A stretch of DNA of 64,000 nt from a virus: IMG/VR virus record IMGVR_UViG_3300045988_146774, positions 32,001 to 96,000 of that record, one strand, 5' to 3'. The position numbers and the translations under genes were made by a program. The first letter of the stretch is position 1. Each line of letters starts with the position of its first letter. Under the pieces are notes generated by a model. The model searched no databases, was not told the DNA's origin, and worked only from the letters and a program-made list of their open reading frames with translations. This document shows, piece after piece, positions 18,089-52,989 of the stretch.

Positions 18089-18092
18089 CTAT

Positions 18093-18182
18093 GACGCATT
18101 AATCCTAAATGGTAAGGAATTAGTCTTGAAAACTAATAGTAGCCGAGTAATCGGTGTCTCTGTTCGAGTCAGAGATGCGTCG
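18093..18182 (+). tRNA. tRNA-Ser(UGA): tRNA-Ser (UGA)
   Basis: Perfect 7-bp acceptor GACGCAT/ATGCGTC, 3-bp D-stem, anticodon arm TTAGT-CTTGAAA-ACTAA, long variable arm GCCGA-GTAA-TCGGT, T-arm CTCTG-TTCGAGT-CAGAG. Confidence 0.8.
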
Positions 18183-18343
18183 TTTTTGTCATTAAAATGA
18201 CGTAAGAATGATGATAACATTCTGACTTTGGTAGCTCGTCACTGCTAATTAAAAATAAAATATTATAGTAAAGAAATAGGCATTTCATACTTTGTGTGTG
18301 GAATGGCTTTTTATTATGGAATAAATGAAAGGAAGTGATTATT

Positions 18344-35581: not shown

Positions 35582-36043
35582 ATGATGGGAAACCCATTTT
35601 TTGAGATTGCTAATAAACTGAGAAAAGCACCGAACGAAATATGTAATATAGCAATTCCAAAATTACAACCGGATGCAGATCAATCATTGCAAAGGGCTAT
35701 AGATAATTATTATAGCTTTTGGGGTGGAGTTATGTATTCACGAACAGGTAATTTTAGAAACTGGACTGCGAAATTACAACATAACGGCGGTGGAAATTGT
35801 TCATTAATTTTAGATAATGGAGCCATGAGCGATTATCATTCAATTATTGGTGGGAGTCCATTGACACAAGAAGGCGCAATGCAACTTATGTTCAAGGGTG
35901 GTGAACATGGTCATGGAAGATTCCAAGCCGGTGTTTCTACTCCACCTCATGATTTAGTAGAACGAGATGTTCAAAGTGGATTTAATGGAAAATTATCAAT
36001 TTATATAAACCAGGCGATTGATCAAGTCCTGGGTAGTTTATAG
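35582..36043 (+). CDS. hypothetical protein
   Basis: 153 aa, GAGGTGA SD. Confidence 0.5.
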   Translation: MMGNPFFEIANKLRKAPNEICNIAIPKLQPDADQSLQRAIDNYYSFWGGVMYSRTGNFRNWTAKLQHNGGGNCSLILDNGAMSDYHSIIGGSPLTQEGAMQLMFKGGEHGHGRFQAGVSTPPHDLVERDVQSGFNGKLSIYINQAIDQVLGSL

Positions 36044-36054
36044 GAGGTGATCGT

Positions 36055-37983
36055 TTGGCACAAGACGTATTAGATTTTAAAGTCAATATAGAAACAGAGA
36101 ATGCTGCTACTAAAATGGAAACTCTTGGTACTATGTATGACGAAATCAAAAATAAAATGGAGAAAGATAAAATTACTCCACAAATTGATTTATCGAAGGT
36201 CAAATCACAAGTCAAAGAGGTTCAAAATTTATTTTCAAATGCTGGAAAAGGCTCTGGCAAAAAGATAGATCTTTCTAATTTATTTACGGTTGATCCAAAA
36301 TCTTTTGATAAGGCAATGAGTTCTTTCTTCTCAAAAATGGATAAACAAATGAAGAGTCGTGCTTCCAAAGTAAGTAAAGATCAATCTGATCTTGCTAAAT
36401 TAATGGCAGCTGACAAAGCAAGTTCTTATCCGTATGCAGATGAGTTAAATGCCAAGAATCAAAAGCTTCTGAGACAATATTCTCGGCAAAATGTTTCCGG
36501 AGAAGATAGGAAGAATTTAGAGACTGCCATGAATCTTCAAGCACAAGTAGAGACATATCAGAAGCGAATGGCAAAAAGTATTTCGGATAATAATTTAGAA
36601 GCTGCAATTGCCGATTATGATAAATGGGCTTCATCTGTTGAGCAGTTAAATTCCGTATTGTCCATTCTTGGTAATACAATGGAAAAATCATTAGATACTT
36701 CTGCTGTTGATACCGCTATTTCTAAAGTCGAAAAATATAGAGACAGTCTGAAGAATGTTAGTGATGAGCAAAATAAAATGCTTGATAAAGTTACCAATAT
36801 GTACAATCAAGAAGGACTGACTCGAAGTGAAAAAATCAATGCGGACAAAGAGTTTCAGCAAGTTAAAAATGAGATCGCACATCAGAATAAATTAGCTGAA
36901 ATTCAAAGGGAAGCTTATTCTGGTAAATATTCTCTCACTTCTGCTAAGGCAGATACTTTCTTATCCAGATACAATGGACAAAGCTCTGAAGTTTTAAATA
37001 GAGCAAGGGCTGAGTTGGCTGAATATAAGAAAATATCTGAAGAGGTTGTTGCTCTATCTGATAAGAAGATTAAGGGAGAATTAATTGATACTTCCGGACT
37101 TGAAGAAAGTAAAGTTAAATTAGAAGAATGTGGCGAACGAATGAAGAATGTTCTCGAAGAAGTTCGTGTCGCTGAAAGTAAAACTCTTGATCCAAAGATA
37201 GCAACTTCTTCTGCTAACAGCGTTCAGAAGTATATGAATGACAATACAAAAGCTTTAAAGAAATATAAAGCTGAGTTTGAATCTGTCAGAGATATGTATA
37301 AGAACGCCACTACTGTTGGTGAAAAAAATACAGCGGATGTTGAATTTAAAAGATTGAAGTCTGCTGTTTCTGCTGAAGGATTGAATGGAAAAGGCTTATT
37401 CGGAAACTTAAGACAATCTTTTTCACAGTTATCTAAATTCAGCGGTGTTTGGGCTATGGCTCAAGGTGCTGTTGTTGATATTCCGAGACAAATTATGTCT
37501 GCTGTGACAGAAATTAATTCTGCACAGATTGAATTGAGAAAAGTTAGCAGTGCATCTGATAGTCAGTTGTCACAGTATTGGAATCAAGCTGCGGAAAGTG
37601 CCAAAAAATATGGTGCTACTGTTAGTGATGTTATTAGTAGCACTGCGGATTGGTCAAAACAGGGATATGGTCTAGATGATGCTAAGAAACTTTCTGATAT
37701 CACAACCTTGTATCAGAAAGTTGGAGACAATATGACGCAAGAAACTGCTTCGCAGAGTTTGGTTTCTACATTACAAGGTTTTAATATGCAAGCTGATCAA
37801 GCTGAATCTATTGTTGATAAGTCCAATGAGGTGGCAAACAATTATGCAATAGGATCAGATGGTATTGGAGAAGCTTTGCAGAGAAGTGCTGCATCATTTA
37901 ATGCTGCACACACAGATATTTCAAAGTCAATTGCTTTGATTACTGGAACCAATACAACACTTCAAGACCCGCAACGTGTCGGT
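36055..37983 (+). CDS. tape measure protein, exon 1
   Basis: TTG start after TAGGAGGTGA. Coiled-coil N-terminus, then a TP901-type TMP core (...AQIELRKVSS...GSDGIGEALQRSAA...LQDPQRVG). The frame degenerates into junk plus a stop after 37983. Confidence 0.75.
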
Positions 37984-38151
37984 TGTAAACATATTGCCGA
38001 CTATTACAGTAATGTAATAAAAATAAAAGTGGCTATATCGGTTAATGTCCAGAAGTGGACAAGACCGAGGAAAGACTTGTATATTTTCGAAGCATATCAA
38101 TTAGGAAGGGTATGCTTTTATTAATTATAAAATTAAAATTAAGGAGATAAA

Positions 38152-39075
38152 ATGCCAAGAAAAGGTAGTAAAACTGGATATACGATAAAATGTGAAAATT
38201 GTGGAAAAGAAATATATCAAACAAAAACTCAGTACAATAGAGCAAAGCATCATTTTTGTAGTAATAAATGTCAAAAGGATTTTCAACATAGACAACTATA
38301 TGAAAATAGAAAATGTCCGATATGTGGCTCCTTATTTGAAATAAGCAAGAAATCAAAACAAAAATTTTGTTCAACTAAATGTCAGAATGAATGGCAGAAA
38401 ACAAATACTGGTGAAAATAATGTTAGATTTAAAGGTTCTATCTGTAATTGCGATTGGTGTAATAAAAGGATAACAATTGGAAAGTCAAATATGGAAAGAT
38501 TTTCTAATCATTTTTGTTCTAATAAATGTAGACAAGCATGGTACTCAAATATTTATTCACAAAATGATACATGGAAAGAAGAATCTAGAATTCGAGCAGT
38601 TAAACTTTTAGAAGAAAGAAAAATAGATACAAATACAAAACCACAGATTATAATAAATAACTTGCTTGATGAATTGCAAATAAATTATATAAATGAAAAA
38701 AATTTGAAATATTATTCATTAGATAATTATTTAAAAGATAATAATTTGGCAATTGAAGTTATGGGAGATTTTTGGCATACCAATCCAATTGTGTATAATG
38801 AATTCCCATCAAAAGAAATACAAATAAAGAGAATATCAAAAGATAAAGCAAAACATACATATATTAAAAAATATTTTGACTATGAAATTTTATATTTATG
38901 GGAAAGTGATATTTATAAAAACTTGAACGTATGTAAAAAATTAATACAAAAATATATAAAAGAAAATGATCATTTACAAAATTATCATTCTTTCAATTAT
39001 CATATCGAAAATAATAATCTTATTTTAAATTCAAAAATAATTTACCCATATTTTGAAAAAGAATTAGTAGCATAG
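38152..39075 (+). CDS. intron-encoded putative homing endonuclease (3 FCS-type zinc fingers plus PD-(D/E)XK / Vsr-like domain)
   Basis: 307 aa, AAGGAGA SD. Three CxxC...FCSxKC repeats. C-terminus ...LAIEVMGDFWHTNP... resembles Vsr/DUF559-type nucleases. Confidence 0.6.
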   Translation: MPRKGSKTGYTIKCENCGKEIYQTKTQYNRAKHHFCSNKCQKDFQHRQLYENRKCPICGSLFEISKKSKQKFCSTKCQNEWQKTNTGENNVRFKGSICNCDWCNKRITIGKSNMERFSNHFCSNKCRQAWYSNIYSQNDTWKEESRIRAVKLLEERKIDTNTKPQIIINNLLDELQINYINEKNLKYYSLDNYLKDNNLAIEVMGDFWHTNPIVYNEFPSKEIQIKRISKDKAKHTYIKKYFDYEILYLWESDIYKNLNVCKKLIQKYIKENDHLQNYHSFNYHIENNNLILNSKIIYPYFEKELVA

Positions 39076-39170
39076 ACTAATGCCTAATCATTTGGTTATG
39101 TGAAAAAGAAAATATACAAGAATCCGTAACGACTGTAACACTTTATATGGTAACATATAAAGTTTCGCCA

Positions 39171-39180
39171 CTCTCCTATT
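39171..39180 (+). promoter_or_regulatory. CTCTYCTATT motif copy (inside intron 1)
   Basis: Exact CTCTCCTATT. Part of hairpin TCCTAT-taat-ATAGGA between the R-like and S-like elements. Confidence 0.45.
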
Positions 39181-39344
39181 AATATAGGATGAAGATCCAG
39201 TCTGAACTGTCAATAGACACTTCTATGAATTATTTCATAGTCGCCACGCTATAACTTAATGAAACGTGGGAATTAGCCAGAAATGACTAATCGCTATATT
39301 TAATATAGTCAGTACCATCTCACAAATGGGAAAGTAACAGGAAG

Positions 39345-39954
39345 AATATGTGGAAAACGGTTAGCGCAAGATTGCGTGGTTCAGAATCTGAACTTAGTGC
39401 TATGGGTGAAGACACAGATGGTCTTGTAACCTCTACATCTAAGCTTCAGGCAAAAGTCAAAGCACTTACTGGTGGCTTTGACATTATGAAAGATAAAGAT
39501 ACATATAAAGATATCTATGATATTGTAGTTGGAATTGGTGAAGCATTTCCAAAGATGAATGACATAAATCGTGCTAGTTTGCTTGAACTTTTAGCAGGGA
39601 AAAACCAGTCAAATGCCCTCGCAGCAGCACTTCAGAACGTTGATGTGATAAAGAAGGCTTACAACACGGCTGCCAATGAATCAGAAGGATCTGCCGAAAA
39701 AGAATTTGACAATTATAAAAAATCGATCGATTATTCTATTCAAAATTTTAAGGCGCAGTTCCAATCTTTCTCATCATCCTTAGTATCATCTGACTTTGTA
39801 AAAGGAATTGTTGATAGTGGATCATCGGCACTTAATATCATTACGCAACTCATAGATAAAGTAGGCTTATTGAAAACTGCCTTCGCTACATTCGCTGGCG
39901 TAAAACTTTTCAAAAACTTAGATTTGTTTTATCTAAACTGGTCACTTCATACAT
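39345..39954 (+). CDS. tape measure protein, exon 2 (3' boundary uncertain: 39908 or 39954)
   Basis: Continues the TMP core (NMWKTVSARLRGSESEL...LLELLAGKNQSNALAAAL...). Has no SD of its own. Its frame stops at 39954-56, just before a group I core. Confidence 0.7.
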
Positions 39955-40310
39955 AAGAATATAACGAAAATGGTGTTGTAAACAAGTGTGTGTTGTTAAC
40001 GTTTTAAAATTAGGAAGATTAATTGCTGGGAAGCCTAATGCTTAATGAGCTACAACATAGTCGGAAACGGCAAGTGTGAATGCGACGAAAGTAGAAAAAA
40101 TCATTAAGATGACATATGGTGAAATAAAAGGCATCGGGAAGATGCTCCTAAGTGTCTAGTATAAGGGCAAAGGTTATAATAACCGACTAACTGATCAGCA
40201 ACGCACTGTTATAGAGAATATATAGCTGTATAGCAGGACGCTCAGAGACTACCGATCTTCGAAGTCAATATGACCTTACAGTATTGACTTATAATGTATA
40301 GTCCAAGAAA
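39955..40310 (+). ncRNA. group I intron 2 catalytic core (P, Q, R and S elements all present)
   Basis: P AATTGCTGGGAAGCC (40021-35), Q CTGATCAGCAAC (40191-202), R GCTCAGAGACTACC (40240-53, versus consensus GTTCAGAGACTACA), P8 AGTCAATA/TATTGACT, S AATGTATAGTCC (40293-304, versus AAGATATAGTCC). Candidate P1: CATACAT(39948-54) with GTGTGTG(39986-92). Confidence 0.7.
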
Positions 40311-40642
40311 CAATATATGTTTTGTTATTACATATTCAAATAAAATAACACGATGCCTTCTATCCCATCGTTATTGGCAATGGATAGAGAATAAATAACT
40401 ATAAACAATAATGGAGATTAGAAAAATATCTAATCTCCAAAATATAATATCGTGTCTCAGACCAGTCATAGTTTGAGATGCATATATTATAAGATATTTT
40501 CCGATTTCTGTAAATGGATTATGGAGAATATACAATTAGCTTACAGAAAGTGAGTGGCAATCCCCAACGGAGCTTGTGATGGCTCCGAAGGGTTTTCTTA
40601 AAAAGGAGGAAATTAATGGAATGATTCACAAATTCAAGTTAA

Positions 40643-40840
40643 TTATTTATTATGTAGTGTGAACATACTATGTGACATCATTTTAGCAATTGCCTTAGCT
40701 TTTTCATCACTGATGTCATCCTTAAAAGCGATAAGGAAAACAGCAATAATTTTAGAAATCTCATGAAGAGAAACATAAAGCATAAACGGAATCACTAAAT
40801 AGATGTTGTTTAAAAGAATTCCAAAAAATTCTTTCAACAC
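40643..40840 (-). CDS. small hydrophobic protein (cargo island)
   Basis: 65 aa with GGAGGG SD on the minus strand (the TTG at 40837 is the likelier start). Two hydrophobic segments. Lies downstream of the Spo0A-C-like gene. Confidence 0.5.
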   Translation of the reverse strand: MLKEFFGILLNNIYLVIPFMLYVSLHEISKIIAVFLIAFKDDISDEKAKAIAKMMSHSMFTLHNK

Positions 40841-41009
40841 TACCCTCCTTTCTGTAAGATTAATTATCTTATTGGAAAATCAGGCAGAATAGCCCATTAG
40901 ATTTCCATCGTGCCATTGTCTTACACTGGCACTACCACGTAAAGATATGGTTACGAAAATCCGTGGAACTAAGCATATTGTGGTCATATGCTGATTTTGT
41001 AACAAATAC

Positions 41010-41018
41010 ATTATACCA
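41010..41018 (-). promoter_or_regulatory. extended -10 element TGgTATAAT (minus strand)
   Basis: Reverse complement of ATTATACCA, about 170 nt upstream of the 40840 start. Confidence 0.35.
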
Positions 41019-41071
41019 TTTTGTCAAAATTTGGAAATCCAGAACATACATTCAGAAAATAAATTAAACGG

Positions 41072-41410
41072 CTAATTGTATAAATTTCGGATTTTATCTT
41101 TATATGCAAAAGCAAGCGCACCTAGAAATTGTGCATTTGATGGACATTTGTTTGGAATATAACCGAATATTGGTTTTAGAATATCTTTTTGTTCATTAAA
41201 AAGATGTCGCACGACTGTACGAATGTTTGATTCTACGACCATTGTAGATGTATGGAATTTCTTTGCAATGGAAGGATATATGTCTTTTGTGATAAGATAT
41301 ATCTCATCATCTTCCACTTCGTTAATTAATTCAATCGCATATTTGATATATCGGTATCCTTTGTACCTCCGACTTATGCGACAGATGAATAAAAAGTCAT
41401 CAATTTTCAT
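41072..41410 (-). CDS. stand-alone Spo0A C-terminal (DNA-binding) domain protein, no receiver domain
   Basis: About 112 aa from the ATG at 41410 (GAGGTGA SD). KGYRYIKYAIELI...ITKDIYPSIAKKFHTSTMVVESNIRTVVRHLF...FGY...PSNAQFLGALA parallels Spo0A-C (HIKGYLYLREAI...[32 protein letters not shown]...FGYT...PTNSEFIA). Confidence 0.7.
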   Translation of the reverse strand: MKIDDFLFICRISRRYKGYRYIKYAIELINEVEDDEIYLITKDIYPSIAKKFHTSTMVVESNIRTVVRHLFNEQKDILKPIFGYIPNKCPSNAQFLGALAFAYKDKIRNLYN

Positions 41411-41443
41411 ATAAATCACCTCATAAGTAAAAGATGCATTAAT

Positions 41444-41471
41444 AATATACCATATTTAGCATACATTTCAA
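41444..41471 (-). promoter_or_regulatory. sigma-A-type promoter for the Spo0A-C-like gene (TTGAAA, 16 nt spacer, TGgTATATT)
   Basis: Minus strand: -35 TTGAAA (41471-66) and extended -10 TGGTATATT (41452-44). Confidence 0.4.
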
Positions 41472-41514
41472 GATGTGACGTGCTAAGATTGTGTTAAGAT
41501 ATTAGTGTTAAATG

Positions 41515-41521
41515 TGTCGAA
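41515..41521 (+). promoter_or_regulatory. consensus 0A box TGTCGAA
   Basis: Exact match to the Spo0A-box consensus TGNCGAA. It lies in the 390-bp divergent region between the Spo0A-C-like gene and the TA locus. Confidence 0.3.
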
Positions 41522-41591
41522 TGGCAAAAATCACAATAAAACTATTATATTTTTGTGTATTATTTGTGTAGCATTTTCCCCATGGAACGGG

Positions 41592-41597
41592 TATAAT
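41592..41597 (+). promoter_or_regulatory. -10 box TATAAT upstream of the antitoxin-repeat RNA
   Basis: Perfect TATAAT 34 nt before the first RNA repeat. No convincing -35 seen. Confidence 0.35.
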
Positions 41598-41630
41598 ATA
41601 AGCAAGAAAACAAAAGTTTTCTTATATACG

Positions 41631-41752
41631 TTTCACAATGTACGCCAAAGAAACATTGTATTTTGAGACAAACGTACTTCGCAATGTGTACCGAATTACA
41701 TTGTATTTTGAGACAAATTCCTTTCACAATGTAGGACAAAGAAACATTGTAG
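41631..41752 (+). ncRNA. type III antitoxin-like RNA: about 2.6 tandem repeats of 44-47 nt
   Basis: Repeat 1 is 41631-41677, repeat 2 is 41678-41721, and partial repeat 3 starts at 41722. Each has an ACAATGT...ACATTGT hairpin and a shared TATTTTGAGACAAA tail. They sit directly upstream of a terminator and a ToxN-like ORF. Confidence 0.7.
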
Positions 41753-41753
41753 A

Positions 41754-41787
41754 GGAGTGGTTCTGTTTAACAGATCACTCCTTTTTT
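41754..41787 (+). terminator. rho-independent terminator between the RNA repeats and the toxin gene
   Basis: GGAGTG/CACTCC stem followed by T6, as in the toxIN-type architecture. Confidence 0.65.
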
Positions 41788-41803
41788 GATACATAGGAGA
41801 AAA

Positions 41804-42349
41804 ATGAAAGAACATGCTTTATATTTTGGGAAAAATGAGTATTATGAAATAATCAGAAGGAATGGTGGAACATGGAATGATTCAAAGGAAAGACCAATTG
41901 TATGTTTGATGAAATCCATAGAACACGAAAAGTTATATTGGGCTATTCCAGTTGGTAATTATTATCATAGAAATGAAGCTGCACGAGAAAGATTAGAAAA
42001 ATATCTTGGAAAAGATAAAAAGAATATACAATCTTGTTTTTATCATGTTGGAAATACAAATGAAAAATCTATTTTCTTTATAAGTGATGTTATACCTATT
42101 ACTGACAAATATATAGAACGGGAATATTTGAATAAAACAAGAAAGGTTCATGAGATAAAAAATAAAAAATTGTTAAATGAATTGGAGTATAAACTTAGTC
42201 GTATATTATCGTTTGAAAACAATAAACCAAATTATTTCCGTCAACACATTACAGACATTAAAACTTATCTGTTAGAAGAATTGAGACAGGAAGAATTACA
42301 ATCTCAAGAAGAAAACACAGAAGAACAAATCCAAGAATCAGAGCAGTAA
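41804..42349 (+). CDS. type III toxin (ToxN/AbiQ/CptN-like endoribonuclease)
   Basis: 181 aa from the ATG at 41804 (AGGAGA SD). N-terminal pattern Y-x-x-x-EYY...ERPIVCLMKS...LYWAIPVG resembles ToxN/AbiQ (RPY-hydrophobic run...Y(F)APLSS). The genomic context (repeats plus terminator) is diagnostic. Confidence 0.6.
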   Translation: MKEHALYFGKNEYYEIIRRNGGTWNDSKERPIVCLMKSIEHEKLYWAIPVGNYYHRNEAARERLEKYLGKDKKNIQSCFYHVGNTNEKSIFFISDVIPITDKYIEREYLNKTRKVHEIKNKKLLNELEYKLSRILSFENNKPNYFRQHITDIKTYLLEELRQEELQSQEENTEEQIQESEQ

Positions 42350-42365
42350 TCACACTGCTCTTTTA
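42340..42365 (+). terminator. rho-independent terminator
   Basis: AGAGCAG/CTGCTCT stem followed by TTTT, overlapping the toxin stop codon. Confidence 0.6.
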
Positions 42366-42400
42366 TTATGTCAAAAATAAAGAGTAGAGAAAATTTTACC

Positions 42401-42410
42401 CTCTTCTATT
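42401..42410 (+). promoter_or_regulatory. CTCTYCTATT motif copy (inside the cargo island)
   Basis: Exact CTCTTCTATT, 52 nt after the toxin stop. Confidence 0.45.
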
Positions 42411-42443
42411 CTACCACTTATATCCACAATCTTTACATTCAAA

Positions 42444-42720
42444 CTAACTACGTGCTGTTTTACTAAATATTCCAAGCAACCCTACTCCTACTGCTTTTGA
42501 TGCTGCGGAGATACGTTTGATATTTGTAAAATTGCATGTTGGGCAAGTTATTTGTGTGTTTGATTGTTGGCTTGAGGATTGATGTTGGGTGGATGTCGCA
42601 TTCCCTTTTACAGTACTCATTCTGTTTTCGTAGGTTTTTTCTGAAAATTGAAAACCGCCAAATTTATTAGCCAGAATACAGTAATATTACTAAATACAAT
42701 ACAATAGATTTATTTTTCAT
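42444..42720 (-). pseudogene. frameshifted fragment paralogous to the C-terminal half of CDS 43789..44325
   Basis: Minus-strand translation ...KFGGFQFSEKTYENRMSTVKGN...ITCPTCNFTNIKRISAASKAVGVGLLGIFSK... parallels ...KYGGNQFSECAYRH...VTCPYCKSTNTKKISAVSRAGSILGFGLFSK.... An upstream 17-codon ORF (ATG at 42720) is in another frame. Confidence 0.5.
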
Positions 42721-42738
42721 TTTGATATAAATAAAAAA

Positions 42739-42976
42739 AGAATAATACAATAAATAGACTCATCTCAGGTGCTAGACCACCAGGTGCATCAGTGAAATAA
42801 CGCAATTTACTATTATCTAGATGGTAAAGAACGCCAATGCTCACAAACATATTCCAGTCTACCGAAGCGGACTCTCGTATATTCGTGAACGTGTACTGGT
42901 TTCAGCACATTATACGTCATATAGCAATCACCTCCAAGATACACCCTTGAGATGAGCCTGTTTATTGTATTATTCT
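42739..42976. repeat. 29-bp inverted repeats (27/29 match) flanking a 180-bp segment
   Basis: Left arm 42739-42767 (AGAATAATACAATAAATAGACTCATCTCA) and right arm 42948-42976 (TGAGATGAGCCTGTTTATTGTATTATTCT). Confidence 0.6.
42813..42920 (-). CDS. 35-aa micro-ORF with strong SD, enclosed by the inverted repeats
   Basis: GGAGGTG SD 8 nt before the ATG. Peptide MTYNVLKPVHVHEYTRVRFGRLEYVCEHWRSLPSR. Below the ORF-track size cutoff. Confidence 0.35.
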   Translation of the reverse strand: MTYNVLKPVHVHEYTRVRFGRLEYVCEHWRSLPSR

Positions 42977-42984
42977 ATATTATT

Positions 42985-43677
42985 TTATTTGTTTTTATTT
43001 AATAATTTTTCTGCTTTTTCAAGTTCATATTTATTATGTATAGAACTTATTAATGCCTTTAAGAAACTTTTCATTTGCTCTATGTCGTATTCGGGATGTT
43101 TCACCATGTAATGTGTTTCGTCGTTTCCAAGCCACGTGGCTGCATTCGCTAATTTTTGTATAGGTTCAAATTCGATTTTTTGGCAACATTTTTCCAATCG
43201 GCATTCTCCAATAGCTTCTTTGGTTAGATTTTGTTCTTGTTGTAAATAGTCTTTCACAAGAAATTCAAGAGCTTTTCTGTAACCTGTGCCGGCTATTGTA
43301 AGCAAACCTTGTCTTTCACATTCACACGCCTCAGAAAATATTTTTGTAAAATCTGGATATTTGTCTTTAATATCTTGAGGAATTGAACTTTCTTCAATCT
43401 CTTTCGGATATGGATATCTAACATCTTTTTCAACATTTTTCAAACTACTTTTCATGTGATATAGAGATACATAATATTGTTTACAATTTGTACAATACCA
43501 AACTGCAAATAAAAGAGGCTTCTCCTTTTCATTGAAAGATCTAATTAAACATCCGTTTGCATATTCTGGTTTTCCAGACTTATGACATATTGGACATGTT
43601 GGTTCGATTTCTACAGAACTTGAAACTTTCGCATTTTCAATTTGTTTCGAATCAAATAATTTTATATCAACATTCAT
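42985..43677 (-). CDS. zinc-ribbon plus DUF4145-like helical domain protein
   Basis: 230 aa. CPICH...CTNC zinc ribbon. The C-terminal ...FSEACECERQGLLTIAGTGYRKALEFLVKDYL...ATWLGNDETHY... resembles DUF4145. Confidence 0.5.
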   Translation of the reverse strand: MNVDIKLFDSKQIENAKVSSSVEIEPTCPICHKSGKPEYANGCLIRSFNEKEKPLLFAVWYCTNCKQYYVSLYHMKSSLKNVEKDVRYPYPKEIEESSIPQDIKDKYPDFTKIFSEACECERQGLLTIAGTGYRKALEFLVKDYLQQEQNLTKEAIGECRLEKCCQKIEFEPIQKLANAATWLGNDETHYMVKHPEYDIEQMKSFLKALISSIHNKYELEKAEKLLNKNK

Positions 43678-43788
43678 TTATTGTCACATCCATTAACCTT
43701 ATACATAAAATTATATATTAATTGCTTTTTATTGTATATACGGAACTAATGTTTTGGTAATTTTTACCATAATTGATACATAAAGCTG

Positions 43789-44325
43789 TTAGAAATCACT
43801 ATTGCAATTGTTACAATGCCATTCTTTTCCCAATTTCTTAGAGAACAATCCAAATCCAAGGATTGATCCTGCTCTGCTTACTGCTGATATTTTTTTAGTG
43901 TTTGTAGATTTACAGTATGGGCAAGTTACCTGAGTTATGTGTTGCTGTTGGATGGACTGGTGTTGGTGGGTGGATTGATTTTTATTTTCTTGTTTTATTA
44001 AACTCAATCTATGACGATATGCACATTCAGAAAATTGATTACCGCCATATTTTTTTGAGAGAATGATATCATAATCATTTTCATTGTCCATATTGTTGAT
44101 AAAATCATTCATGGTTTCTTTTGTAATAATTGTTTTTATATTACAAAAGCGACATTTTTTGTCGGCGTTTAATTCATCGCTTGAGTATATCATTGCACAT
44201 TTTGGACAGATATAAATATAGTCATCTGCTTCTAAATTTGAACTTAAAGGGTATCCACACTGATTGCATTCTTTAGCATAATTACTAATTTCTTTCCCAC
44301 ATTCAGGACACTTTATTAATGCCAT
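43789..44325 (-). CDS. multi-zinc-ribbon protein
   Basis: ATG at 44325 with GGAGG SD (the track ORF starts at 44370). Motifs CPECG...CNQCG, CPKC...CRFC, CPYC...CNNC. Confidence 0.55.
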   Translation of the reverse strand: MALIKCPECGKEISNYAKECNQCGYPLSSNLEADDYIYICPKCAMIYSSDELNADKKCRFCNIKTIITKETMNDFINNMDNENDYDIILSKKYGGNQFSECAYRHRLSLIKQENKNQSTHQHQSIQQQHITQVTCPYCKSTNTKKISAVSRAGSILGFGLFSKKLGKEWHCNNCNSDF

Positions 44326-44360
44326 ATTATTTCCTCCGAACAATCTTATAAATTTATTTA

Positions 44361-44390
44361 AGTATATCATGAATTGTAAAAGTATGCCAA
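44361..44390 (-). promoter_or_regulatory. sigma-A-type promoter (TTGGCA, 18 nt spacer, TATACT) for the minus-strand cargo operon
   Basis: Minus strand: -35 at 44390-85 and -10 at 44366-61. It abuts the start of TMP exon 3. Confidence 0.4.
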
Positions 44391-47300
44391 TAATTTTATA
44401 TTCATTATGCAGTTTAAAGACTTAGGAAGTTTATTTGATAGTTTTGGAGAACTTAATTTTAAACATGCAAGTAAAGCCTCTTCTTTTGCGGATTTGGATG
44501 GAATAGATAAAAACACTATAAAAGGTTTGTTTAAAATAGATAACAATGATATTAGTGATTTTACAATGGCTCAAATTCAGGCAAAAGCAAGTACGATGGG
44601 ACTTACTGAGTCATTAACAGATGAATTAATGGCTATGTCAAAAGACGCTGATTTTACAGCCAAAGCAAAAGTCGGTAAAGTAACTTGGGGGGAAGCACTA
44701 AAAGAAGGTTCAACAAATGCGGATCAAATAGGGAAAGCATTAATGAAATCTTCCGATGTTTCCGATAAAGCAAAGAAAAAATTATCGGAAGTTTATGATA
44801 AATTTGGAAGTGGAAGTCAAGTATATCAAAAACAGATAGAAAATATTATAAATGGTGCAAATGGTTTAGATGATATTTCTGGTAAATTTACAACTCTTGG
44901 GGCTGATGTCCAAAAATCTACTGGAATGTTCGAATCCGCTGGTAATATTATCAAAGGATTCTTTGCATCAATAAAAGGGTATATTCCTATTCTTGCTGTT
45001 GCCGGAACAGCTTTCGCAGCGTTTAAACTTTGGGACTATTCTCAAACTGGATATACTAGAGCTAAAGAGAAAGCAGAAACTTCAGCTTCTACTTTTTCAG
45101 AAGATAAATCTAATCTCCAATCTCTTCAACAAGAACTTGATACAACAAAGAGTAAAATTGAAGAACTCAATGCTACAAAAGAACAGAATGGTGGATTGTC
45201 TCTTACTGATGAAGCGGAGTTATCTAGACTTGAACAAGAAAATGCCCAGTTGGAGCGTAAGGTCGCAATTCAGAAACAGCTCACAGAAATTTCCGCACAG
45301 GCTGCTTCAAGTGACGCTCGAAAAGCTGCCAATACTGCCCAAACATATTGGGATCATCTTAAAGAGAAAAATGGCGGAGGATTTTTTGGAACGCTAAAAT
45401 CTATTCCTGAATATTTTGCTACAAAACGTGAAGAAAAAGATGGAAAAGTTTATCTCACTAAGGAGAAAAATACTTGGGAAAAAGAAAATGGTGGTAAAGG
45501 AAATACCACTCTTGAAAATCAAACAAAAGCCAATATTAAAACGCTCAAAGATTACCAAAGTCAATTAGAAGATATTGAAACTCAACTTGGAAGTTCTGAT
45601 TTGACAAAAGGAGAAAGAAAAAGTCTCCAAAAACAGCAAAAAGAACTTAGTGAAAATATTGCTGATACAAAGCAGACTTTATCTACACAGACAGACCAAC
45701 TTCAGCAGTGGATTGATGCTTCATATGGGGCAGATGGAAAACTTGAGTCTGGAGCATCTAAATATGTAGATAATTGGAATAAAATCATTAACGATGTTAA
45801 CAATACTATCGGGCAAAAGACCAAAACACAAATTGACGCAAGTAATTTAGATACTTACTTCAACTCTTCTTCTGGTTCTGCTATGAAAGAATATTTGGAG
45901 AATATTGTTGAGGAAGGCGGATCTGCTCAAGATGCACTTGACGCATTTAGAGAGTCCGGAATGCGTCTCAAAGATATTGATGTTTCAGAAAATGGATTTC
46001 TTACATATTTTGAAGATGTAAAACGTCAGGCAGAGGAAGCAAAGCAAGCTGCGGAAGATTATTCCGCTTCTGTTTCAGATGTAGAATCTGCAACTGAATC
46101 TGCAAATCAGGACAAAGATTGGTCTACTATCCAAAGTGCTTATAAGGCTGCAAAGGAATCATTGAAAGAAGGCAAAACTGGAACCGATGATTTTCAGACT
46201 ATGGCAAAATTCCTTAACTCCAATGCGGTAAAGAAATATGCAGAGCAAGGCGGTAAATATACTGCTGATGCTTATCAGAAAGCTTTCCAAGAGGCAATGG
46301 GAACAGCCGATAGATGGTTTGGTGATGATGAAGCCACTAGTATGAAGAATTTCGTCAATGACTTCAAAAATAAAGGATTGTGGGATGTCTCTACTGACGC
46401 AATGGGTCTTTGGGATATCAAAACAAACTTTAATACAACTGCTGAAGCTGCTGACAAGTTTGGAATGAGTGTTGAATCCGTAGAAACAATGTTGCATGGT
46501 CTTGAAGCCTATGGATATGACTTTAGTGACATTATGTTTTCTGCTGAAGGTCTTGATGAATATAAGACAGCTCTTGACGGGATTAAATCTACATATGATG
46601 AAATGACGGATGGTGCTGCTAAAGATAGACTTGGATCATTGATTGATAGTTTTGAATCTGAATATGATAAATTCCAAAATGGAGATTTAAAGAATCTTAC
46701 AAAGGATCAGATTGTTAAAATTAAATTTGAGTATGATTTATCTCAAGTTGAGCAAAAAACTCAAGAGTTGATTGATCAAGCTGCAAACAGTGGCTCTAAT
46801 AATGATTTAGCCGGAGCAATAGTTTCTCAGAAAAAAGAGCGTGATTTATTAGAGGGACGGACGAAATATACAAAAGATTCTGATGAAGGGTATTCATATT
46901 CTTATGATCAGATTGATAAGCTCCAACAAAAAATGACTGGCGCAACAAAGACAGAACGAGCAGAGATTAATAAGCAAATTCTTGCATATCAAGAAATGCA
47001 AAATAATTTTCAGAAATACAGACTTGATGGTGGAGATTTAAATTGGAATGATTATTTGGATACTCCTTCTGCTACCGCTGCTTTTGATGAGATTATTAAA
47101 AAAGGTCTTATGACAAAAGACCAACTCAAAGATTTGTTTGGAGAAAAAGCAACTTATGAGATTGATGCAAAGCTCAACGACGATAATCTCCAAAGCAAAT
47201 TAAAGAAGCTTAAATCTGGTGAAAGCATTACTTTTAAAGCAGATGTTGGCGATATTGAGACTGATGTAGAGGCTGTAAAAAATGAAGACGGTACGGTAAC

Positions 47301-50300
47301 ATACACAGCAAATATTGGTGGAGTCCCAAAAGAAGTAAATAAAATTGCCGACGCTGAAGGCAAGATTCATTATACTGCTGATTTTGATGGTTCGAAGGAA
47401 TGGCTTGAGAACAATCTTAAAAAAGAAGAAACAATTACATTCAAAGCTGACGTTGCTGGGGTTACACAAGATATCCAAGCTTATAAAGACGAAGACGGTA
47501 CAATTCATTATTATAGTGTTTTAGACAATGGAACACGCAAAGAACTAGAACAACATAAAAATGAAGACGGTACAATTACCTATACTACTACTGCTGACAC
47601 TTCTGGTGTGGAAAAAGCGACCAAGAAAGCTAAGGAAAATGCTGAAAAGAATAAAATCGAATTAGAGATTACTGCAAAAGATACCAATCTTGTAGATAAA
47701 TATATACAAGAAAAACAGAAAAGTGACGCAGCGAAATCAAAACTATCAGATTCTGAAGCTGTACATGGTAATGTAGATAGTCGTGATCGTCCAATGATTT
47801 ATTGGGACAAAGAAAACCTTAAATCTAATAAATCTGCTCTTAAGAGTTGGGGGCAGAATCCAAAGGATTTAAAAGGATCTTATTCTACTGTCATGGGCGG
47901 AAGTGATGAATTTCAAGGTGTAGAAATTGCATATACTCCTGTGCTGAAGACTGGTGATGGAAAAGGTGAAGTTATCAGCAAAAACACAATGAGTAAGTAT
48001 ATTAACACTCTCATTGATCAAGCAAAATCCGCTGGTGACGGAAATTGGACTACTGAAGATTTATTAAAATTAGATTCTGAAGGTTTATTAGTCGACGGGA
48101 AGAAAATTTCTAATATGATTGCAGATGTTGGTGACACTGCCAAAGAAACCGGCGAAAAGATGCATGATATAGATGATTCTCTTTATTCCGAAGAATATGC
48201 AAAATACTGGGATGAAATTTCTGAAAAGGCTGAAAAGGCTAATATGTCCGTCGAGGATTATGTCAATACAGTTGCTTCTACTAGCGTAACATCAGATAAT
48301 CTTGTAACAAAAGATAATGGATTTGATAAAGTTGTTGAAAACGCAAAGAATGCTGTCGAGACATTAAAAGGGCTTGGTAATGAGAATCTTAAGTTAGATT
48401 TTGATTTTAAAACTACTAATCTTACAGATATAGAAAATCAAATTCAGCAAGCAAAGAGTAATCTTGATCAGTTTAAGAATGATGACGGTACTGTTAATAT
48501 GTCAATCAATGGAGCACAAGAAGCAGTTACAATTCTTGAGACATTGATTCAGCAAAAACAGCAAGCCTCTAATCCTGTAATAATGGAAGTAAGCACAAGT
48601 GGACTTGATTCCGGAGTATCTGGTGCGGTTTCAAAATTAAAGGAGTATCAAAATGCCTTAAACCAGCTTAATACTCTTAATGAATTAAAAACTGCCGGGG
48701 TACAAATTGATGATTCTCAAATATCTGATGCCGAGGATAAAGTAAATGGCTTATTTGATGAAATTCAGAAAGCTTCTGAAAAAGGTCAATTTAAAATAAA
48801 TGCCGATGTTTCTGTAGATTCATCTTCACAAGAAAAGCTACAGTCAGACCTTAAAAACATGACTCCGGAGATTAAAGCAAAAATTACTGCGGATGATTCT
48901 GACACAAAGAAAGATGGCAAGACTACTGAAGCAAAAGTAAATTACAAAAAAGGATCACAAGAAAAACCAAGTCCTAAAAATGCCAAAGTTAATTACAAAA
49001 AAGGTTCTCAGGCAAAGCCTAGTCCAAAGAACGCAAAAGTTAACTATAAAAAGGGTAGCCAGGCTAAACCAAGTCCTAAAAATGCCAAAGTTAATTACAA
49101 AAAAGGTTCTCAGGCAAAGCCGACATCTCCTAAAACAGCAACAGTTAACTATAAACTTGGTACAGTTGCAAAACCACCTGCTGTAACAGTTAAAGTTAAT
49201 TACGATACTTCTGGTGCACCTAAAGTTCTTGGAACAGCGCATGTAAAAGGATCTACTGGTGGTTTATATCCTATTCCACAATTATCAAGACGTGCACTGG
49301 CAAGCGGAACATTGTCTGATTCCTCATGGTTGAAAGATAGATGGAAAACGAAAGACTCTGAAATGGCTTTGGTTGGGGAGGTCGGACAGGAACTTGTAGT
49401 TTCTGGAAACAGATGGTACACCGTCGGTGATAATGGTGCGGAATTTGCTCATATTCCTGCCAAATCAATCGTATTCAATTCTAAGCAGACTGAAGAGCTG
49501 TTGAAAAAAGGGTTTACTAATTCTAGAGGCAAAGGCAATATATCATTACCTGGAACAGAAGCATTTGCATCTGGTACTGCTTACAGGTTAGGCAGCGGAG
49601 CCTCTTCTACTACAAATGCTAAGAAAAAAACTTCGTCTGGAACCAAATCCTACGGAACTTCAAAAGCGAAATCAAGCTCTGGTTCAAACACAAAATCCAA
49701 TTCCAATTCAAATCCTGATTCATCTGAATCAGCAGAAAAATCTGAAGAATTATTAGATTGGATTGAAACTCTGCTTTCAAGGACTTCTAGATTGACAGAG
49801 TTAGCCACAAGTGCTGTTGATCGTGCGGTCGGATTGGCTAATAAGCAGAATGCACTTGTAGATGCGGTTACAAAAACTCAGAATGAAATCACTACAAACC
49901 AAAATGCAGCGAATAAATATTTTGCTCAAGCAAATTCTCTTGGTCTTGCTCAAGGATATGTCGACAAGATTAAAAATGGTACTCTTGATATTGAATCAAT
50001 TACTGATGATAATCTTAAAGATAAAATCTCTAAGTACAAAGATTACTATGAGAAAGGCTTGTCTGCTCAAGATAAAGTCCTCGACCTTCAAGACAAACTT
50101 AATGAACTCTACCAGAAACGATTGGAAATCATAGAAAAAGAATATGATACTATCGTTGAGGTAAACGATTCATTAAAGGATATGCTTGATGCTAAAATTA
50201 GTTACAACTCTGCTTATGGCGTAGCAAATGACAATCAAGATAATATAGATAGTATCAATAAGTCTATCAAAGCACAAGAAGATACTATCAATCAGCTTAC

Positions 50301-51287
50301 TAAAAAGCTTGATGCATATCAGAAGGAAGTTAATTCTCAGATTACTTCCGGGACATTGAAGAAAGGTTCTGAAGATTATAGGTCTGCACAGAAAAATCTT
50401 AATGATTTTACGGCAAATATTTATAAAGCATCACAAGAACTTATCGAGTTACGGGATAAACTTGTACAGTTAAGAGCTGATGCAATTCAGACGATTATTG
50501 ATACGTTCAAAAGACGTTCTGATAAATTGGATAAGTATACTTCTCTTCTTGAAGCTAAAGATGAAACTGTACCAGAATCAGTATATCAGGAAAGACTGGA
50601 TAACAACAATGACACAATTCGTAAGAACCAAGAAGCCAGAGCCATTTGGCTAAAACGACAAGCAACCGAAGATGTAAATTCGGACAACTATAAGAAATAT
50701 GCTGAGGAAATCCAGAAACTTGATGAATCCACTCTTGACCTTATGAAAGACAACGAAGATTTAAAGAACTCTATCTATTCTCTCAGAATCAAAAATCTGG
50801 AAGATGCCATCAAAGGTTATGATGATTTGGAAACTGAGTTAAAAGGATTCAGAGATCTTTTAAATGACGATGCTTTCTTAGATAAAAAGGGTGGAATCAC
50901 AGATGAAGGATTGGCTCAGATTACTCTTCTCTCTCAGAGTATCGGAAATGCAAAACAGAAAATTTCTGACCTCACAACCGGACTTCAGAAAGTAAAAGAA
51001 CTTTATGATAATGGTGTTATCTCACTTAAAGAATATAACGAAAAATCTGCGGAATATCGCAAAGAACTTCAGTCTTCTACAAGTGATGTAAAATCTTATC
51101 AGAAGAGTTTGACTGATTTATATCAGAATGCTTTGAAAACAGAAGTGGATGCACTTCAAAAAGTCATAGATAAAAGAAAGTCGGCACAGACCGCCCTTGC
51201 TTCATATTACGATTTTCAAAAAAAAGTTACATCTCAAACAAATGATGTAAACAGCTTAAAAGCTCAAATTGCAGCACTCGAAGGGGT
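44387..51287 (+). CDS. tape measure protein, exon 3 (5' boundary uncertain: in-frame acceptor candidates after G44386, G44412 or G44419)
   Basis: A 2301-aa ORF with no SD before its first ATG (44407). TM segments, long coiled coils, EDGT(I/V)xY modules, 17-aa tandem repeats and the LVGEVGQELV motif. The frame degenerates after 51287. Confidence 0.75.
48931..49230 (+). repeat. in-frame 51-nt (17-aa) tandem repeats AKVNYKKGSQ(A/E)KPSPKN, 4 copies plus 2 degenerate
   Basis: Read directly from the protein (KVNYKKGSQEKPSPKNAKVNYKKGSQAKPSPKNAKVNYKKGSQAKPSPKNAKVNYKKGSQAKPTSPKTATVNYKLGTVAKPPAVTVKVNY) and from the nucleotide sequence. Confidence 0.85.
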
Positions 51288-52989
51288 AACATTATTTGCC
51301 CTATTTGTTTAATTGCTGGAACGCCCTTAGAGCTACATATACTACAACGAATACATGAAATAAGGTAAATCGTGAATGTTAAAAAATATGTAGATTGGGT
51401 AATCAGCAGCGAAATTCCGAACAGGAATACGTTCAACGACTAGGTAGGATGAGTGTACTACCGTAGGATCGCAAGCGATTGGCGATTCGAAAAATACAAA
51501 CTGTTTATTAATTAAATATAGAATTCATAAATCACGTTGAGATATACGTGATTTTTTAGTGTGCGAATTTATTTAAAGAGAATAAAAGAAATGGAGGTGA
51601 AATATGCTAGTACCTAATCAAAAAGTTGAGGTATGCTGGAATAATACAACAAAAAAACATTATATGGAATTGGGATATGAATTTACAAAAATCAGAGATA
51701 AATTTCTTGTAAATGTTGAAGATTTAACACCTCATTCCGGAGAACAAATAAGCGTAATTTGTGATTACTGTGGCAATCAAAAAATGACAACATTCAATGA
51801 TTATAATTGTTCTATTAAAAAATATCCATATAAATATTCTTGTTCAGAATGCATCCCAGTAAAACAAAAAGAAATTAGAGGAAATAAATATAAAGGAAAA
51901 TATTTTAACGTATTTGTCAATAAATGTATTGAGAATAATTGTGTTCCAATTTCAACTATTGATGATTATCAAAATGCATATTCTAAGCTATATTTTATTT
52001 GTAGTAAACACGGACAACAATGTATAACTTATAATAGCATTAAGGCTGGGTCTTGGTGTATAGAATGTGGACATGATAAAGGGGCAAAAAAGATTGCAAC
52101 GCCAATAGATAAAGTAATTAAAATAGTTGAATCAAAAAATAATAATAAAATTATTAATCCAGAAGAGTACATAAATTTTAGCACTTCTAATCTTCTTATT
52201 AGATATGGATGCTGTGGAAAAGTTTCAACTACTTCATTGAACTCGTTAGAGAATAGTGATGGTCTATGCTATGATTGTGGACAAAAGAAAGCAAAAGAAC
52301 ATATAAAATTATCTATGGAAGAAGTAACAAAACGGATAAATTCTGTTAACAATAATAAATTGTTAAATCCAAGTGAATATATTGACAATTCTACAATTAA
52401 TTTAAAGATATTATGTGGAGAATGTAATAAAAATATTTTTATAACAAGCTTGGCTAATTATGAATATAATCAAAAAATACGTTGTGGAACATGTTCTCAG
52501 AGGATAAGCGTCCCGGAAAGAACAACACGAAATATTTTAGAAAAATATGATATAAAGTATCTTCCAGAATACAAATTCAAAGATTGTAAAGACAAAAGAC
52601 CACTGCCATTTGATTTTTATCTTCCAGAATATAATATTTTAATAGAATTAGATGGGGAGCATCACTATCATCCTAAATGGGGTGATGAGCAGTTGAAATA
52701 TATTCAAAATCATGATAAAATGAAAAACGAATATTGCGAAAATAATAATATCACTTTAATTCGAATTCCATTTTGGGAGTTTGATAATCTTGAAAAAATT
52801 CTTATAGAAAAACTTAATCTTCCACAAATCGTGGACATAGAATTATCCAATGGTCGAATTTTTAAATACAAAGCACACAAACCAAAAGAATAATTAATAA
52901 ATAGAAGATATAGTCTAATCTCATATGAAAGTATGAGGAGAGTTATACTACTCTCTCACTTATGTAGCGAATAAGTGAAAAGATAAATG
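51288..52989 (+). mobile_element. group I intron 3 (with endonuclease ORF in the P8 region)
   Basis: P1: exon GGGGT(51283-87) pairs with GCCCT(51298-302). P AATTGCTGGAACGCC (51311-25), Q AATCAGCAGC (51401-10), R GTTCAACGACTAGG (51431-44), S AAGATATAGTC (52905-15), P7 GACTA/TAGTC. Ends in G52989. Joining gives ...AALEG-V-NDAATLAKKK in frame. Confidence 0.8.
51604..52893 (+). CDS. intron-encoded putative homing endonuclease (four zinc-ribbon repeats plus PD-(D/E)XK / Vsr-like domain)
   Basis: 429 aa, GGAGGTG SD. Repeated CxxC...CxxC units. C-terminus ...SVPERTTRNILEKYDIKY...FDFYLPEYNILIELDGEHHY... resembles DUF559/Vsr-type nucleases. Confidence 0.6.
   Translation: MLVPNQKVEVCWNNTTKKHYMELGYEFTKIRDKFLVNVEDLTPHSGEQISVICDYCGNQKMTTFNDYNCSIKKYPYKYSCSECIPVKQKEIRGNKYKGKYFNVFVNKCIENNCVPISTIDDYQNAYSKLYFICSKHGQQCITYNSIKAGSWCIECGHDKGAKKIATPIDKVIKIVESKNNNKIINPEEYINFSTSNLLIRYGCCGKVSTTSLNSLENSDGLCYDCGQKKAKEHIKLSMEEVTKRINSVNNNKLLNPSEYIDNSTINLKILCGECNKNIFITSLANYEYNQKIRCGTCSQRISVPERTTRNILEKYDIKYLPEYKFKDCKDKRPLPFDFYLPEYNILIELDGEHHYHPKWGDEQLKYIQNHDKMKNEYCENNNITLIRIPFWEFDNLEKILIEKLNLPQIVDIELSNGRIFKYKAHKPKE

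Follow-up and report, generated by a model that had tools for sequence, protein, structure and literature searches.

The closest described relative of the locus analysed here is the CptIN system of Eubacterium rectale (structure 4RMO; Blower 2012, Rao 2015), a type III toxin-antitoxin (TA) system in which the antitoxin RNA, CptI_Er, is a 45-nt H-type pseudoknot with an A-rich crossing loop and the toxin processes the RNA by itself (PMC4627078). In the survey of Blower 2012, cptIN repeats measured 40-48 nt and occurred in 1.9-3.4 copies, and strain ATCC 49256 of Fusobacterium nucleatum subsp. vincentii was listed with one cptIN locus (PMC3401426). ToxIN of Pectobacterium and AbiQ/AntiQ of Lactococcus differ by their toxin family, their 36-nt repeats, their heterohexameric complex and their proven abortive infection; there too, the toxin processes its own repeat RNA and the product inhibits it, as the locus studied here would do by analogy. 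This locus lies on a 64,000-nt stretch of viral DNA (IMG/VR record IMGVR_UViG_3300045988_146774, positions 32,001 to 96,000; hereafter the window, numbered from its first letter), whereas all 33 cptIN loci of the 2012 survey were chromosomal, with none on phages (PMC3401426). In the literature searched, we found no report of a phage-borne cptIN. Type III systems on phages or prophages are represented by toxIN on Clostridium phage D-783 and by viral tenpIN (Nadig 2025), which have other toxin families; according to the 2025 survey, the former was the only one described from a phage until that survey itself found viral tenpN.

The window locus is very probably a self-contained type III TA module of the CptIN family. 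As in E. rectale, its order is promoter, tandem repeats of about 45 nt, terminator and toxin gene. The two systems further share a gut Bacillota background, an antitoxin that is, or here is predicted to be, an H-type pseudoknot with an A-rich crossing loop, full-length toxin homology, a common fold (template modelling score, TM, of 0.82) and the Tyr104, Ser85 and Arg-Pro residues of CptN_Er. They differ in that toxin identity is 22-24 % and the window toxin falls below the NCBIfam cut-off, in a Ser-Ser-Arg triad replaced by Gly-Asn-Tyr with His-Arg nearby, in the absence of RNA sequence similarity and in stem lengths (stem S1 of 3-4 bp, stem S2 of 7 bp and loop L1 of 3 nt in the window), and in a C-terminal acidic helix of about 25 aa in the window toxin. 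The module is thus a divergent, phage-borne new member of a known family. An earlier sequence-only reading, made by a model from the letters and their open reading frames (ORFs), had already called this layout canonical for type III systems, and the match to an Rfam family together with the recurrence of such arrays upstream of homologous toxin genes bears it out.

The same reading had described a TATAAT box followed by about 2.6 direct repeats of 44-47 nt, and both are present: Tandem Repeats Finder (TRF) returned 2.7 copies of period 45 at 41631-41751 (score 142). It had also suggested a cptIN-like repeat length, and length and copy number do lie inside the published ranges (PMC3401426). The hairpin that it attributed to each repeat was recovered in all three copies as a 7-bp stem, ACAATGT/ACATTGT in copies 1 (41635-41659) and 3 (41726-41750) and GCAATGT/ACATTGT in copy 2 (41681-41704). 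The conserved tail, TATTTTGAGACAAA, follows copies 1 and 2. One detail needed adjustment: the array, although at the place indicated, effectively starts at about 41624-41629 rather than at 41631, because a pseudoknot strand lies 5' of the first hairpin. A 52-aa ORF running across the repeats (41638-41796) was considered as a gene and rejected as a by-product of the repeat sequence.

The remaining parts of the locus are also as that reading had described them. Between array and toxin gene, the stem GGAGTG (41754-41759)/CACTCC (41776-41781) followed by T6 (41782-41787) forms an attenuator, which is a strong hairpin in both minimum free energy and centroid folds and dominates the leader fold (whole-leader z = -3.25). 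Attenuator and TATAAT box are both kept in the 80 %-identical copy of viral contig L007. Array and toxin gene are co-oriented, with 52 nt from the array end to the toxin ATG, and the 181-aa ORF is preceded by its Shine-Dalgarno sequence.

When compared with Rfam, the array matched RF02920 ("Fusobacteriales-1") with 73.5 bits (gathering score 52.1, E 1e-8) over model positions 1-113, i.e. over the whole model. Rfam types this family as cis-regulatory ("Cis-reg") and its model comprises hairpins only; the name Fusobacteriales-1 occurs in no paper of the literature searched. For comparison, we used 80 loci from species-representative genomes (Lachnospiraceae, Oscillospiraceae, Bacilli, Fusobacterium, Negativicutes and Treponema) and 59 loci from IMG/VR. 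Upstream of the toxin genes, TRF detected 39-46-nt repeats in 2-3.4 tandem copies at most of the 80 genome loci, and a hairpin scan found 2-3 units in nearly all loci (54 of the 59 viral ones), the last unit lying 50-95 nt before the toxin start codon. RF02920 exceeded its gathering threshold in all 8 close loci, in 12 of 14 diverse loci and in L141, each time just upstream of the toxin gene. RNA and toxin are strictly linked across phyla, the motif lying 40-95 nt upstream of a gene of the toxin clade in all cases checked. Fusobacterium gave the highest scores (115-128 bits), and arrays of this type extend beyond Fusobacteriales to Lachnospiraceae, Oscillospiraceae, Bacilli, Negativicutes and phages. 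One of the loci, L035, comes from strain ATCC 49256 and is identified with the locus listed in 2012 by strain, not sequence for sequence. Since matches above threshold always lie just upstream of a toxin of this clade and the repeats are in the cptIN range, we conclude that RF02920 is the antitoxin array of this CptN clade.

Each antitoxin unit is predicted to fold as an H-type pseudoknot in which S1 (3-4 bp) is interleaved with the 7-bp hairpin S2. The 3-4 nt placed 3 nt 5' of each hairpin complement the first 3-4 nt of its loop, which gives the topology S1a, 3-nt linker, S2a, S1b, A-rich loop, S2b. Across the three window units S1 varies yet stays paired (CGU/ACG, GUAC/GUAC and CCU/AGG). Covariation was assessed on 139 distinct repeat units from all loci, the loop interiors being trimmed to obtain a gapless alignment. 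The three core S1 pairs were formed in 136, 139 and 138 of these units, with 4-5 pair types each and 38, 38 and 67 double changes, respectively. None of 500 column shuffles reached the observed pairing values, and all slid registers dropped to 22-49 % paired. The 100 % pairing of S2 is partly ascertainment, because the hairpin was used to select the units; S1 was not. Rfam models three independent hairpins, whereas the present data add a covarying pseudoknot stem and linkage to a gene of the CptN clade.

The 181-aa ORF matched the NCBIfam model NF047359 (CptIN toxin) over its full length (E 8.7e-17, model positions 2-148 of 150). The sole solved structure found by sequence was CptN of E. rectale (PDB 4rmo_A; E 4.3e-7 for the sequence alone, 2.3e-9 for the family profile), and the profile of the window clade retrieves canonical CptN representatives. 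No match at E<=0.1 was obtained in Pfam, including ToxN/AbiQ (PF13958), or in PADLOC. The sequence-only reading had likened the N-terminus to ToxN/AbiQ and proposed a search with profile models; that search was negative for PF13958 and positive for the CptIN model, and we rejected the ToxN/AbiQ assignment as NCBIfam, 4RMO and Foldseek all give CptN. [quoted passage not shown] With the latter model, Foldseek returned 4rmo_A as best PDB match (E 3e-10, root-mean-square deviation 2.9 Å, TM 0.71/0.82, the second value normalised to the target). The next matches were MazF/Kid/CcdB toxins and AbiQ, the latter (4GLK) being a remote fold match (E 6e-4, TM 0.53-0.57) that reflects the distant fold relationship with ToxIN/AbiQ; the kinship of type III toxins with MazF/Kid-type toxins is already published (PMC4627078).

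On sequence comparison, the window toxin is a member of a sister clade of canonical CptN. On NF047359, this clade, Fusobacterium included, scores 55-70 bits and canonical CptN representatives 109-123 bits. It counts 791 matches in a 90 %-clustered database, all of which are annotated as hypothetical and lack a Pfam domain, and 326 representatives when clustered at 50 %; being missed by Pfam and PADLOC and below the NCBIfam cut-off, the roughly 790 homologues have therefore remained 'hypothetical protein'. Among 87 toxin sequences, 28 positions are invariant. In the alignment with canonical CptN, Tyr104 of CptN_Er, which positions the scissile adenine, corresponds to Tyr108 and is kept, as are Ser85 (here Ser89) and Arg30-Pro31, while Asp81 falls within an indel. 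The roles of the CptN_Er triad, Asp81/Ser85 and Tyr104 are those described previously (PMC4627078).

Several observations weigh against the assignment to CptIN. The toxin scores 61.4 bits on NF047359 and is thus below the curated equivalog cut-off of 90 bits. The Ser-Ser/Thr-Arg triad of CptN_Er aligns to Gly51-Asn52-Tyr53 in the window clade, next to an invariant His55-Arg56, so that the active-site chemistry, i.e. the catalytic constellation, may be altered relative to CptN_Er. The cassette promoter has a weak -35 element (TAGCAT, 17-nt spacer), and a consensus promoter scanner did not call it at TATAAT 41592-41597. Finally, RNA processing, toxin inhibition, toxicity and trigger are carried over from the characterised ToxIN and CptIN systems.

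Two other explanations of the repeats were weighed. The first takes them as a cis-regulatory leader of a gene that is no toxin, as the 'Cis-reg' type of RF02920 and the hypothetical status of the homologues would have it. We regard this as extremely improbable: sequence, profile and fold all make the protein a CptN homologue, the RNA is built of tandem pseudoknots as type III antitoxins are, and a Fusobacterium locus of the clade, matched by strain, was already classed as cptIN (PMC3401426). The second considers the array mainly as an anti-defence decoy, i.e. a pseudo-antitoxin neutralising the CptN of the host. Phage escape from ToxIN by RNA mimicry, as in PhiTE, provides a precedent. It is nevertheless very improbable here, given that the toxin gene is intact and under purifying selection (the 28 invariant positions), that it always travels with the array, and that CptI/CptN pairs are strictly cognate (PMC4627078).

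Under the CptIN reading, the module's own sigma-70-type promoter would transcribe three tandem units of about 45 nt, each an H-type pseudoknot. Most transcripts would end at the attenuator and read-through would give little toxin mRNA; because most transcripts stop there, the RNA antitoxin would be in excess of the toxin. The CptN-like endoribonuclease would cut the repeat RNA to single units of about 45 nt and then be held inactive in a closed protein-RNA complex. Once synthesis of the unstable RNA stopped, free toxin would cleave cellular and phage RNAs; either an incoming phage that shuts off transcription or the element's loss could be the trigger. Coordinates of the module and of the surrounding features are collected in Table 1.

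Table 1. Positions, in window coordinates, of the cptIN module, the accessory island and the tape-measure gene
Feature	Position	Strand	Basis or detail
-10 box TATAAT of the cassette's own putative promoter	41592-41597	+	read from sequence
cptI-type antitoxin array, 2.7 tandem repeats of 44-47 nt	41624-41751	+	TRF, Rfam RF02920, covariation
Three predicted pseudoknot units of the array	41629-41659, 41674-41704, 41720-41750	+	
Intrinsic terminator (attenuator) between antitoxin array and toxin gene	41753-41787	+	sequence, fold
Shine-Dalgarno and cptN-like toxin gene, 181 aa	41795-42349	+	AGGAG 41795-41799, ATG 41804, stop 42349
Cassette-closing intrinsic terminator	42340-42371	+	hairpin 42340-42361 and T-rich tail
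Minimal mobile cptIN cassette (promoter, repeats, terminator, toxin, terminator), about 0.85 kb	41521-42378	+	blastn
2-kb block (terminator hairpin, small minus-strand ORFs, Spo0A_C-like gene, cptIN)	40384-42412		blastn
Accessory island splitting the tape-measure gene, 4486 nt	39924-44409		holds cptIN
Core resembling a group I intron, 5' edge of the island	39924-40345	+	motifs, alignment to L092/L100 and L007 intron
Spo0A_C-like gene, 115 aa	41072-41419	-	Pfam PF08769, E 1.2e-20
Zinc-ribbon ORF, 58 aa	42444-42620	-	
DUF4145/phrog_1305 zinc-finger protein gene	42985-43677	-	
Multi-zinc-ribbon gene, 193 aa	43789-44370	-	
Tape-measure exon 1	36055-37983	+	phrog_4211/PF10145-type tape measure; splice model
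Group I intron 1, homing-endonuclease ORF 38152-39075	37984-39344	+	P1/P10, endonuclease matches
Tape-measure exon 2	39345-39923	+	phrog_4211 positions 800-942
Tape-measure exon 3, or start of a separate C-terminal polypeptide	44410-51287	+	
Group I intron 3, HNH homing-endonuclease ORF 51604-52893	51288-52989	+	phrog_559, E 4e-49
Tape-measure exon 4, Ig-like C-terminal part	52990-54517	+	

The cptIN cassette is mobile. Exactly its minimal extent is 99.9 % identical by blastn in L006, in another prophage context, where it lies at the edge of a prophage with a phrog_8308 gene beside it and bacterial genes adjoining, and 41548-42379 is 80 % identical in L007/L009. Phages L001-L005 share the larger 2-kb block at about 98 % identity, with tape-measure genes that otherwise show only about 70 % similarity. 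A 99 %-identical toxin protein occurs on at least 24 contigs, and phage-borne copies of the toxin clade are common, with 59 IMG/VR contigs carrying it. L006 represents a second cptIN insertion site in a related phage: the large phrog_8308 protein, encoded at 7417-10029 in the window, lies at L006 1-1758 directly upstream of the cptIN copy. Tape-measure flanks were found at 1 of the 80 species-representative genome loci, so the intron/island context described below is lineage-specific and not a trait of the family. A further group of about 35 viral contigs of 65-115 kb (L147-L183, from one human-gut data set) encodes a toxin 58 % identical to that of the window, with three pseudoknot units upstream of it and no tape-measure gene within 5 kb. 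Megablast of 16 kb of the window against INPHARED phages gave no match.

The window itself corresponds to the structural module of a phage, with genes for terminase, portal, virion proteins, tape measure and tail fibre, in accordance with the earlier view of a phage-borne locus, and related contigs carry integrase and lysis genes; the phage is a temperate phage of gut Bacillota. Its tape-measure gene contains two ordinary group I introns. Canonical P1 and P10 can be drawn by hand for both: intron 1, whose endonuclease is treble-clef/Vsr-like, ends in G and has P1 GUCGGU/GCCGAC, with its U.G at the splice site, and P10 AAUAUG/CAUAUU; intron 3 has P1 GGGGU/GCCCU and P10 AAAUGAU/AUUAUUU. Rfam RF00028 gave nothing at gathering score across the whole window, thereby missing introns 1 and 3, and nothing at E<=1 in 36000-46000. 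In related phages, L003 has an uninterrupted allele of its gene (649-aa N-part), and L001 and L005 have precise insertions of 1215 nt and 508 nt in the tape-measure N-part, the ORF-less 508-nt one matching Rfam's group I model in full (39.7 bits, with E 1.3e-8 for the search concerned). The literature already documents introns in tail and tape-measure genes, and introns 1 and 3, with canonical P1/P10 and a looped-out endonuclease ORF, resemble those of T4 td/nrdB/sunY, SPO1 and mycobacteriophage cluster J. Elsewhere in the window, tape-measure exon 3 contains a protein tandem repeat, NAKVNYKKGSQAKPSPK, in about 4 copies at ~49000-49400 (local GC content up to 0.41), and four phage tRNA genes (Met, Pro, Tyr and Ser) occur as two pairs at 10356-10511 and 18006-18183.

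In one lineage, an intron of this kind carries the TA module. In L007-L011 and L092-L094, the cassette lies between tape-measure ORFs of 1426 aa and 661 aa; the toxin of the L007-type loci is 77 % identical to that of the window and occurs on at least 24 contigs. Deleting 1338 nt (L007 5354-6691) restores a 2132-aa ORF, whose junction ...KISDYKTW|YEKALD... aligns without gap to the uninterrupted residues 1847-1906 of the window protein. The insertion ends in G, its P1 (ACUUGGU/GCUAAGU) places U.G at the splice site, and partial RF00028 matches flank the cargo (16.8 bits, E 0.24, and 26.8 bits, E 2e-4; both below gathering score). Its backbone is 73 % (5' half) and 80 % (3' half) identical to intron 3 of the window, and cptIN occupies the exact place of the HNH endonuclease ORF of that intron. 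From its sequence, the L007 insertion is a group I intron carrying a complete cptIN in place of a homing endonuclease, and the comparison with intron 3 indicates that cargo was exchanged within one intron family whose members occupy different insertion sites. It differs from the phage introns cited above by a cargo that is a full TA transcription unit, not an endonuclease. We found no report of a TA module inside a group I intron in the literature searched.

In the window, the situation is more complex. The sequence-only reading had placed the locus within the tape-measure gene, which holds as gene architecture, but it is not a simple insertion, the locus being part of a 4.5-kb multi-gene island. 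The 5' edge of this island is a group I intron-like core with the motifs AATTGCTGG (40021), CAGAGACTA (40243), a P8 hairpin and GTATAGTCC (40296), i.e. the P3/P4, P7, P8 and P7' classes, homologous to real introns. This core is conserved at 72-77 % in L092, a phage with different cargo, and nearly identical in L100, and its 36-nt P4-P6 motif GCTACAACRTARYYGGAAACGGYAAGYGTGAATGCG is common to 39 IMG/VR contigs. The motif marks an intron family in gut viral contigs L101-L138; most copies are compact, with P7' 170-220 nt downstream, and reside outside tape-measure genes, and many have apparently ORF-less cores. Behind the core follow a terminator hairpin, small minus-strand ORFs, the Spo0A_C-like gene, cptIN, the DUF4145/phrog_1305 gene and zinc-ribbon genes. 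Compared with known phage group I introns, the window differs in that the core is followed by this 4-kb island with genes on both strands. The ORF of the sunY intron also lies 3' of the core.

Among the neighbours, the Spo0A_C-like protein comprises the C-terminal DNA-binding domain of Spo0A only. Its gene is divergent from the adjoining cptIN, with which it travels in the 2-kb block shared with L001-L005 and L100, and its product could regulate host sporulation genes or the cassette. The 58-aa zinc-ribbon ORF looks paralogous to the C-terminus of the 193-aa protein (ITCPTCNFTNIKRISA vs VTCPYCKSTNTKKISA), and L092 also keeps a zinc-ribbon gene that lies immediately upstream of the C-terminal tape-measure part in divergent orientation. 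Group I-like cores immediately after the N-terminal tape-measure part were observed in the window, in L092 (870-1262), in L100 and in L095 (9350-9720), each preceding an accessory island of 4-5 kb that differs between them; L141 and L098 share another conserved element after the N-part, CAGTTTGACCTCTCAGTTCCTAGAGGTAGATAAGATGGAAC. The cargo of L092 at this site consists of helix-turn-helix and zinc-ribbon genes, and that of L095 (9966-14621, same split site) includes a GmrSD_N (DUF262) gene and a weakly PemK-toxin-like gene. Spliced or not, the island occupies a hot spot for cargo, and the GmrSD-like and PemK-like genes of L095 suggest that cargo at this site would include defence functions.

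Whether the island is spliced out was considered under two readings. The one to which we give an even chance holds that the tape measure consists of two separately translated polypeptides, the core being a relic or splicing locally and the island an ordinary intergenic moron hot spot. The other, possible but rather doubtful, holds that the whole island is the interior of a giant group I intron whose splicing yields a single 3637-aa tape-measure protein. Of the features of a group I intron, the island has only the core motifs and the homology to real introns. RF00028 gave no match in 39850-40450 at E<=1, P1 ends in U-A instead of U.G and is not kept in L092, and a canonical P10 could not be drawn. 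Such non-canonical pairings fit two polypeptides, as does the highly variable island content between phages. Conversely, the conservation of the core RNA in a divergent phage with different cargo, and its membership of a family found in 39 viral contigs, speak for the giant intron, the former also against two polypeptides, and L007 provides a homologous intron able to carry cptIN. The ends of the island could be closed as a loop by a 9-10-bp complementarity between UUAUUGGCA (40374-40382) and UGCCAAUAA (44381-44389), which shows one U-A to G.U change in L092, but this long-range duplex does not outperform shuffled controls. Also against a giant intron are the antisense genes and the pair of plus-strand terminators inside the island.

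The coding evidence is similarly divided. The four-exon model is stop-free, with an open 3637-aa frame, and homologous genes are contiguous in cultured phages: the tape measure of Brevibacillus phage Sundance (2528 aa) extends 1440 aa beyond the equivalent point, and that of Enterocloster phage CB473P3 (1510 aa) 1070 aa. Yet none of about 115 tape-measure homologues spans the junction; all detectable N-part homologues end at the same residue, as expected of separate polypeptides. A search with the head of the C-part returned 12 short proteins only. No Shine-Dalgarno sequence precedes the C-part, whereas the other genes read here have clear ribosome-binding sites, which favours splicing. A conserved NTG stands immediately before CAGTTTAAA in three lineages and is counted in favour of splicing, but NTG is a valid start codon too, and a start-capable NTG is present at the head of the C-part in every lineage, consistent with independent translation. 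A broader proposal, that tape-measure group I introns of gut Bacillota phages serve as vehicles for defence or addiction cargo, with the TA unit replacing the endonuclease in one lineage and the window island being the interior of a giant intron, is in our view unlikely as a whole. If true, an essential virion gene would have its expression coupled to an element with host-killing cargo.

As to the biological role, the CptIN module of the window is a mobile 'moron' cassette of 0.85 kb, carried as cargo by the intron-associated island that splits the tape-measure gene. The sequence-only reading had suggested superinfection exclusion of competing phages. An anti-phage role by abortive infection is a real possibility, against which we lean slightly. 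ToxIN and TenpIN do abort infection (PMC3401426), and the GmrSD-like and PemK-like genes in the L095 island at the same tape-measure site suggest a defence hot spot. Weighing against this role, in the sole experiments on CptIN, CptIN_Er conferred plasmid stabilisation and no abortive infection of coliphages in E. coli (PMC4627078, PMC3401426). Stabilisation is therefore a serious rival: the module would be an addiction device keeping the prophage, the island or the intron rather than an anti-phage system, in line with a cassette that always travels with mobile DNA (island, intron or prophage edge). We nevertheless hold it to be rather unlikely, given the defence-like genes of L095, the activity of ToxIN and TenpIN, and the fact that the abortive infection tests used only coliphages in a heterologous host.

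For the family, the link between RNA and toxin gives RF02920 a function and provides a covariance-model handle for finding loci, and a phage-borne cptIN offers natural hosts and phages for studying the biological role of CptIN. The exchange of an endonuclease for a TA unit in homologous intron backbones would represent an unusual spreading route for defence or addiction genes, as would the recurrent accessory island at one tape-measure site. For the phage, the insertion raises the question of how a structural protein of 3600 aa is expressed across it.

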